From NCBI RefSeq assembly GCF_003334765.1, contig NZ_QOWT01000001.1: a DNA stretch of 64,000 nucleotides; one strand, 5' to 3'. This document shows positions 8,388-10,912 of this stretch, one piece after another. Made by a program: the position numbers and the translations under genes. Within the stretch, counting starts at the first letter, position 1, and each line of letters starts with the position of its first letter. The notes below the pieces were generated by a model. It did not search any database. It had not been told where the DNA came from and saw nothing but the letters and a program-made list of their open reading frames with translations. This stretch comes from Escherichia coli. GTDB taxonomy: Bacteria > Pseudomonadota > Gammaproteobacteria > Enterobacterales > Enterobacteriaceae.

Positions 8388-10912
<2,525 letters not shown>

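Follow-up and report, generated by a model that had tools for sequence, protein, structure and literature searches.

DgcQ (YedQ) is among the more strongly expressed diguanylate cyclases of Escherichia coli (PMC5635695), and it links extracellular arginine to c-di-GMP—the intact protein responds to arginine outside the cell, affects cellulose regulation, and makes E. coli more sensitive to phage N4 (Sellner et al. 2021, PMC8669472). The closest described relative of the gene treated here is a dgcQ allele with a stop codon in the region encoding the periplasmic domain and an ATG two codons later, which Richter et al. described from three O104:H4 strains (2014, EMBO Mol Med, PMC4287979). These authors named a restart by translational coupling and read-through as possible outcomes, thought a restart 'highly likely', and proposed a protein that lacks its N-terminal part and keeps the GGDEF domain intact (PMC4287979). 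Strains 55989 and HUSEC041 bear the amber allele and still produce cellulose, so that full-length DgcQ is dispensable for cellulose in both; the cellulose defect of the outbreak strain was ascribed to bcsE (PMC4287979). A passage in Ojha et al. 2024 (PMC11327459), citing Povolotsky and Hengge 2016, names at least six enteroaggregative strains as carriers of stop 312 and AUG 314.

Interrupted genes of c-di-GMP and cellulose pathways are also known from other lineages. In Shigella flexneri 2457T, where dgcE, dgcN and dgcM are degenerate as well, a dgcQ with a stop at codon 56 and a methionine at codon 59 gave two proteins and raised c-di-GMP on overexpression; full-length-sized bands were reported for some of the Shigella nonsense cyclase genes (Ojha et al. 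2024, PMC11327459). In E. coli K-12 W3110, the sixth codon of bcsQ is amber (PMC5635695, PMC4287979).

Here we analyse a stretch of E. coli DNA of 64,000 nucleotides, referred to as the window, in which dgcQ is found in the chromosomal order known for DgcQ/YedQ, yodC-dgcQ-yedP. Positions 9318-9329 read GCG TAG GCA ATG, the GCA lying at 9324-9326, and the two open reading frames (ORFs) on either side of the stop share a single frame; 311 codons, the stop, Ala313, and a further 251 codons make up 564, the length of intact DgcQ, with TAA next. A preliminary description of this DNA had reported just this arrangement, which both the sequence and the ORF list bear out, and had expected CAG or another sense codon at position 312 in other strains; K-12 and most complete genomes have CAG (Table 1). 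Since K-12 has CAG (Gln) there, the lesion amounts to one C-to-T transition. Over its 1,695 nt the window gene differs from that of K-12 at 24 positions, and the K-12 protein is 99% identical. The one unbroken frame of 564 codons that marks DgcQ/YedQ is interrupted in the window by TAG312; the position is a sense codon in 22 aligned orthologues, so the gene has an in-frame stop where its intact orthologues have none, as expected of a nonsense pseudogene, and every TAG genome fetched carries the PGAP note 'internal stop' for dgcQ. Conservation of a two-ORF arrangement across taxa was not found, the listed full-length orthologues from Escherichia, Citrobacter, Salmonella and Enterobacter being single ORFs of about 564-573 aa. 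Judged by the allele counts given below, the amber codon specifically sets this gene apart from versions that are otherwise conserved, and the two ORFs are not a chance pattern.

The domain layout of the gene is that of the DgcQ family: a CHASE7 domain between two transmembrane (TM) helices, followed by a C-terminal GGDEF domain with a GG(D/E)EF motif and an RxxD site (Table 1). The Pfam scan was run on the K-12 protein (99% identical) and not on the window translation, and relatives in the PDB, such as PleD and DosC, match DgcQ residues 393-560. The GTG start is preceded at 7 nt by the Shine-Dalgarno sequence GUGGGGAGU, with a duplex energy of -8.0 kcal/mol. That the piece downstream of the stop keeps a TM helix and an intact GGEEF domain, as first described, agrees with the helix, motif, and Pfam positions found here. 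The description of the two pieces as sensor and GGDEF halves holds for the split itself and needs one refinement. TAG312 comes after CHASE7 and about 45 residues before TM2, and so lies within the periplasmic region and not at the border between sensor and catalytic domain; 'halves' is loose because the C-terminal piece also takes in the final ~45 residues of the periplasmic region, three conserved predicted beta-strands among them.

These strands come from an AlphaFold2 model built on a 22-sequence alignment, of which we used only the secondary structure at residues 260-346 (block-mean pLDDT ~57-77), the mean pLDDT being 59 and that of the CHASE7 part below 50. In this low-confidence model residue 312 is placed near the end of a helix (304-316), and strands at 319-324, 327-333 and 339-346 stand between it and the TM2 helix; in the orthologue alignment, the stretch 319-346 ranks among the best-conserved periplasmic segments. 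As the strands fall in the C-terminal fragment, neither fragment would retain an intact membrane-proximal periplasmic module, if the model is right. A sequence search found no solved structure of the DgcQ periplasmic domain.

Table 1. Features of dgcQ and small RNA genes in the window (positions count from the first nucleotide of the window; residues are numbered as in intact DgcQ)
Feature	Position	Strand	Evidence or remark
dgcQ (yedQ), 564 codons + TAA, broken at codon 312	8388..10082	+	100% identity to dgcQ of E. coli 55989 and FORC_069; RefSeq pseudogene, 'internal stop'
Upstream ORF, GTG start, 311 codons to the amber codon: cytoplasmic N-terminus, TM1, most of the periplasmic region	8388..9323	+	ORF list
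TM1, residues ~23-43	8454..8516	+	Kyte-Doolittle, 19-residue windows > 1.6
CHASE7 periplasmic sensor domain, residues 41-227	8508..9068	+	Pfam PF17151, E = 6.8e-95
TAG, codon 312	9321..9323	+	CAG (Gln) in K-12 and 5,119 other complete genomes
Downstream ORF, 251 codons + TAA: ~45 periplasmic residues, TM2, linker, GGDEF domain	9327..10082	+	ORF list
ATG, native Met314, candidate restart codon 3 nt past the stop	9327..9329	+	without Shine-Dalgarno
Shine-Dalgarno-like stretch CGGGGCGGC (9342-9350), then ATG of Met324 (9357-9359), second candidate restart	9342..9359	+	anti-Shine-Dalgarno duplex -6.5 kcal/mol, 6-nt spacing (moderate)
TM2, residues ~357-380	9456..9527	+	hydropathy; AlphaFold2 helix 355-400
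GGDEF domain, residues 398-557	9579..10058	+	Pfam PF00990, E = 4e-47
RAQD (RxxD inhibitory site), residues 468-471	9789..9800	+	sequence motif
GGEEF active-site motif, residues 477-481	9816..9830	+	invariant in 22 orthologues
DsrA small RNA	11093-11179	+	Rfam; ~1 kb downstream of dgcQ, between yodD and dsrB
rseX small RNA	2667-2756	-	Rfam
C0465 small RNA	63378-63455	-	Rfam

The alleles of 5,426 complete E. coli genomes were counted by megablast with 41-mers that have the variable base at their centre, so that a match is seeded only when this base agrees. TAG was present in 210 genomes, CAG followed by GCA in 3,977, and CAG followed by GCG in 1,142; the combination of TAG with GCG had 0 matches among the 5,426, and about 35 genomes were left without an assigned allele. 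The TAG allele thus makes up 3.9% of a genome set that is a non-random sample, because O104:H4 outbreak genomes are over-represented. Its carriers include O104:H4, 55989, a strain named ST648, avian O78:H4 strains and VR50, and they come from humans, pigs, dogs, poultry, water, and sediment. The exact 311-aa product is found on at least 1,000 public contigs and the exact 251-aa product likewise; for O104:H4 strains the two have been deposited as separate proteins. A sequencing or assembly error, which was to be checked according to the preliminary description, is effectively ruled out—210 complete genomes, each assembled independently, have the identical base, as do at least 1,000 contigs and the three O104:H4 strains of Richter et al. 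(PMC4287979). The other circumstance that would have overturned the description, a natural DgcQ encoded by two genes, is contradicted by intact DgcQ itself, which over 5,100 E. coli genomes encode in one ORF, as do the Citrobacter, Salmonella and Enterobacter orthologues.

Other truncated dgcQ products are also on public record (proteins P0003, P0004, P0009, P0052 and P0088): two C-terminal ORFs from different haplotypes, one of 193 aa on 118 contigs and one of 241 aa on 31 contigs, an ORF of 225 aa on 147 contigs that bears F539 of the window haplotype, and frameshifted N-terminal products of 461 and 414 aa. The gene appears to have been disrupted repeatedly and independently in E. coli.

The history of the allele was read from 16 TAG and 11 CAG alleles that we fetched. 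TAG312 is the sole lesion in all 16 TAG alleles, which share an identical core around the stop, differ in their flanks, and fall into four mosaic classes. The class of the window comprises 55989, FORC_069, VR50, an O78:H4 avian strain and pig, dog, and human isolates, one of them with a single extra SNP; in a second, 'ST648 type' class the sequence upstream of the gene and its nt 1-513 derive from another haplotype, a third has a different 5' replacement, and the fourth, NCTC9040, has a 3' end and downstream flank like those of strain W. The intact CAG alleles of 08-00022 and F8704-2 match the ST648-type allele throughout nt 1-933 but no longer from nt 934 on, which sets a recombination junction between nt 514 and 933. 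A single mutational origin of TAG312, after which the TAG-bearing segment moved into different backgrounds, fits these sequences. Independent recurrence is not supported: the core is shared by 16 of 16 alleles, and TAG was never found with the common neighbouring GCG. We also rejected P22L and R86C as signs of decay after the stop, as the intact alleles of 08-00022 and F8704-2 have the same residues; given the identity of these alleles to the ST648 type over nt 1-933, both changes arrived by recombination.

On an otherwise identical haplotype of 1,182 nt, TAG is carried by 210 genomes and CAG by 2, and the CAG alleles that come next in similarity diverge by about 0.8%. The two CAG genomes are near-clonal and come from a food-transport container in Hungary, in one study (L023, NZ_CM194531.1, positions 988-2682; and NZ_CM194529.1); their haplotype has 3 differences from the window in 4.2 kb, the TAG site included, and a TAG genome, NZ_CM194533.1, has the same source description. 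The Hungarian CAG genomes could be ancestral survivors or TAG-to-CAG revertants. Private changes on the 16 TAG alleles number four—S37F, P259L, S292F and R305H—and all are nonsynonymous and lie in the upstream fragment; among 22 aligned orthologues S37 never varies, and at least 90% conserve S292. The 251-codon downstream ORF has none, although with four events in total this bias has a p of only ~0.09. As a lead only, the distribution hints that the sensor fragment may be decaying while the catalytic ORF is not. The TAG allele looks young, and the absence of further decay says little because TAG alleles show almost no diversity.

Within 10083-35015, the dgcQ amber allele adjoins different downstream haplotypes: in some 30 genomes the 25 kb that run through the flagellin gene (33522-35015, 497 aa) are all but identical to the window, and the 55989 and O104:H4 genomes, with a dgcQ identical to that of the window, are absent from those ~30. 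Simple hitch-hiking with one flagellin (H4) allele is not supported, as 55989 and O104:H4 share the dgcQ allele and are not among these ~30, judged from haplotype matches over 10083-35000. Strain 1428 has 1 mismatch to the window over 47 kb and then 72 from ~58478 to 64000 (the flhDC-motAB-cheA region), a stretch (58478-64000) in which BS74R-D and IAL7250/7252/7254 are 100% identical to the window; the sequences look like a recombination boundary near uspC/flhD. Between fliE and yedF, the segment 24051-27322 matches strain 1428, where it is annotated with emrE, ybcL, a helix-turn-helix regulator, an IS200/IS605 transposase, a truncated helix-turn-helix fragment and a truncated SOS-response-associated peptidase fragment. 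This segment is a small island with an insertion-sequence-associated scar, unlike the yedN/yedM/intG/yedK arrangement of K-12. At the other end of the window, FORC_069 is unalignable upstream of ~2666, with 190 mismatches in 279 nt (2388-2666) beside the rseX match, which suggests a replaced or inserted segment at 2388-2666. The small RNA genes DsrA, rseX and C0465 are all at their expected places, with nothing unusual about them.

Known bacterial restarts past nonsense codons include those that give the lacI and phage T4 rIIB restart proteins, and termination-reinitiation coupling has been described by a scanning-reinitiation model; a start codon 3 nt after a stop favours termination-reinitiation. 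In the window an in-frame start does lie a few nucleotides past the stop, at Met314, but a Shine-Dalgarno sequence—helpful, though not strictly required—is lacking there: the best anti-Shine-Dalgarno duplex at AUG314 reaches -3.2 kcal/mol at a spacing of 1 nt and so ranks at the 43rd percentile when every position of the gene is scored. Of the restart codon proposed in the preliminary description, then, the adjacency to the stop stands and ribosome-binding support does not; such support, of moderate strength, is found instead at the ATG of Met324, absent from that description, which begins 33 nt after TAG312. Most orthologues carry Ile or Val in place of Met314 and Leu in place of Met324, so these methionines are incidental and not evolved internal starts, and we reject the idea of a conserved internal start codon. 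The N-terminal tail from either restart would be short and net-acidic (6 Arg, 8 Asp/Glu when counted from Met314), and TM2 could take its native orientation only if this tail passed through the membrane. No unusual RNA structure was found around the stop, the fold of 9281-9380 having an energy of -25.2 kcal/mol (z = +0.79 versus shuffles), and a search for promoter-like sites near the restart codons gave nothing above background.

We put at about two in three the probability that full-length, signal-coupled DgcQ has been lost in strains with this allele and that, at most, a putative TM2-GGDEF restart product is made at a low level. An inherited C-to-T nonsense polymorphism, Gln312 to amber, would have arisen once on one haplotype, and recombination would then have carried the amber allele between E. 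coli backgrounds. Translation would halt inside the periplasmic sensor region, leaving no meaningful amount of full-length DgcQ; the allele would be a null or strong hypomorph for periplasmic, arginine-responsive c-di-GMP synthesis, as the RefSeq pseudogene call implies. Ribosomes that end at the UAG may reinitiate at AUG314 or AUG324 and thereby yield a little of a putative ~28-kDa TM2-GGDEF fragment. We infer this loss, and the low level of any restart, from a stop that precedes both TM2 and the GGDEF domain, from the missing Shine-Dalgarno sequence at AUG314, and from the lack of an unusual RNA structure, an internal promoter-like site or a suppressor in the window; the independent breakage of dgcQ elsewhere, including the Shigella flexneri stop at codon 56 (PMC11327459), counts in the same direction. 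Against loss count the four or more mosaic backgrounds, the 3.9% frequency in the genome set described above, and, in a small sample of an allele that looks young, the 0 of 16 TAG alleles with a second lesion or with a private amino-acid change in the downstream ORF. An excess of TAG over CAG of 210 to 2 on the allele's own haplotype is likewise not expected of a costly defect.

The preliminary description had left two options, a pseudogene or a restart at 9327, and both are supported as the readings to be weighed, being the same two that Richter et al. set out (PMC4287979). If the split gene works, efficient reinitiation at AUG314 or AUG324 would produce an active, possibly deregulated TM2-GGDEF cyclase that lacks the sensor and adds to the c-di-GMP pool, and the allele would be kept for that. 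This is the main rival, unlikely in our view, if well short of negligible. The ATG 3 nt past the stop speaks for it and also against plain loss, as does the Shigella dgcQ analogue with its two products and its raised c-di-GMP (PMC11327459); the second ATG with its moderate Shine-Dalgarno-like sequence, the intact GGEEF, RAQD and TM2, the downstream ORF free of further lesions and private amino-acid changes in 16 alleles, the spread of a frequent allele by recombination, and the 'highly likely' of Richter et al. (PMC4287979) point the same way. The Shigella result, however, was obtained by T7 overexpression and with another cut site, the lack of decay means little in alleles so uniform, AUG314 has no Shine-Dalgarno sequence, and the poor conservation of Met314 and Met324 does not suit an evolved start. 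With TM1 gone, moreover, the ~45-residue tail would have to pass through the membrane unaided by it. Dimerisation, which GGDEF enzymes require, normally depends on an N-terminal sensor and transmembrane module, and from the TM2-GGDEF fragment this module is missing. Still more doubtful is the idea that the amber allele is a selected variant, spreading by recombination, that uncouples c-di-GMP output from periplasmic arginine sensing while its N-terminal fragment decays and its C-terminal ORF is preserved; selection could act through the abolition of arginine-triggered DgcQ signalling, for example by way of less c-di-GMP-dependent N4-phage receptor glycan, or through a constitutive, sensor-less TM2-GGDEF protein made by restart.

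Two further explanations would restore the whole enzyme in place of a part of it. Read-through by a near-cognate tRNA-Gln or a suppressor tRNA might give enough full-length DgcQ for normal function, and Gln, the wild-type residue, is a typical insertion at UAG. Basal read-through of UAG in wild-type E. coli is, however, normally well below 1%, and no stimulatory RNA structure was seen. The three tRNAs in the window (Gly-GCC, Cys-GCA and Leu-UAA) include no amber suppressor, and the supE44-type glnV allele with a CUA anticodon is present in 157 complete genomes whose carriers, among the matches listed (60 of 157), are all K-12 laboratory strains; the match table shows no annotated feature under these supE44-type matches. 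Even with the mention of read-through by Richter et al. (PMC4287979) and the full-length-sized bands from some Shigella nonsense cyclase genes (PMC11327459), we consider it very improbable that normal function is kept in this way. Less probable again is a reassembly of the two chains in the membrane, in which the three periplasmic strands of the C-terminal fragment would complete the N-terminal fold and give a signal-responsive enzyme. The model does put the cut inside one alpha/beta module with conserved strands on both sides, and both ORFs are intact in all sampled TAG alleles; that model is of low confidence (mean pLDDT 59), however, no orthologue is naturally split, and the private changes—all nonsynonymous, all N-terminal, two of the four at conserved positions—hint at relaxed constraint on one of the would-be partners. 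Loss of full-length, signal-coupled DgcQ is the reading that we prefer.

A common natural allele that removes or rewires DgcQ is relevant to strain differences in biofilm, motility, and phage susceptibility, including those of the O104:H4 outbreak lineage. Our finding adds no new biology in itself, because the allele and both of its interpretations were published in 2014. What is added here is its frequency (~3.9% of the complete genomes in the non-random set, well beyond enteroaggregative strains), evidence that fits one origin followed by mosaic spread, the predominance of TAG over the parental CAG haplotype by 210 genomes to 2, and Met324 as a further candidate restart codon, where the potential for ribosome binding is better than at Met314.

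Set beside the known systems, the window carries the same stop-312 allele as O104:H4 and 55989, its gene being 100% identical to 55989 dgcQ. The window itself derives from neither 55989 nor O104:H4, and its flanks match other genomes, such as BS74R-D and IAL7250; the allele is also far more widespread than the enteroaggregative strains named by Richter et al. and Ojha et al., being present in 210 complete genomes from varied hosts and water. The Shigella dgcQ follows the same pattern of a nonsense codon before an intact GGDEF domain with an in-frame methionine a few codons on; however, nearly the whole protein lies downstream of the Shigella stop, whereas only TM2 and the GGDEF domain lie downstream in the window allele. 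The Shigella evidence, in addition, comes from plasmid (T7) overexpression.

The lacI and rIIB restarts resemble dgcQ TAG312 in having a start codon a few nucleotides downstream of the stop in one message; compared with those restart proteins, AUG314 is without Shine-Dalgarno complementarity and the restart product is putative. The bcsQ amber codon is likewise a natural TAG polymorphism that disables part of a cellulose/c-di-GMP output pathway in one lineage, but it affects another gene, no restart codon has been described next to it, and only K-12 strains carry it. In gene and domain order the window agrees with intact K-12 DgcQ and with Salmonella STM1987, an arginine-responsive CHASE7-GGDEF cyclase; in contrast to intact DgcQ, its sensor is no longer joined to the catalytic domain because the ORF is interrupted.
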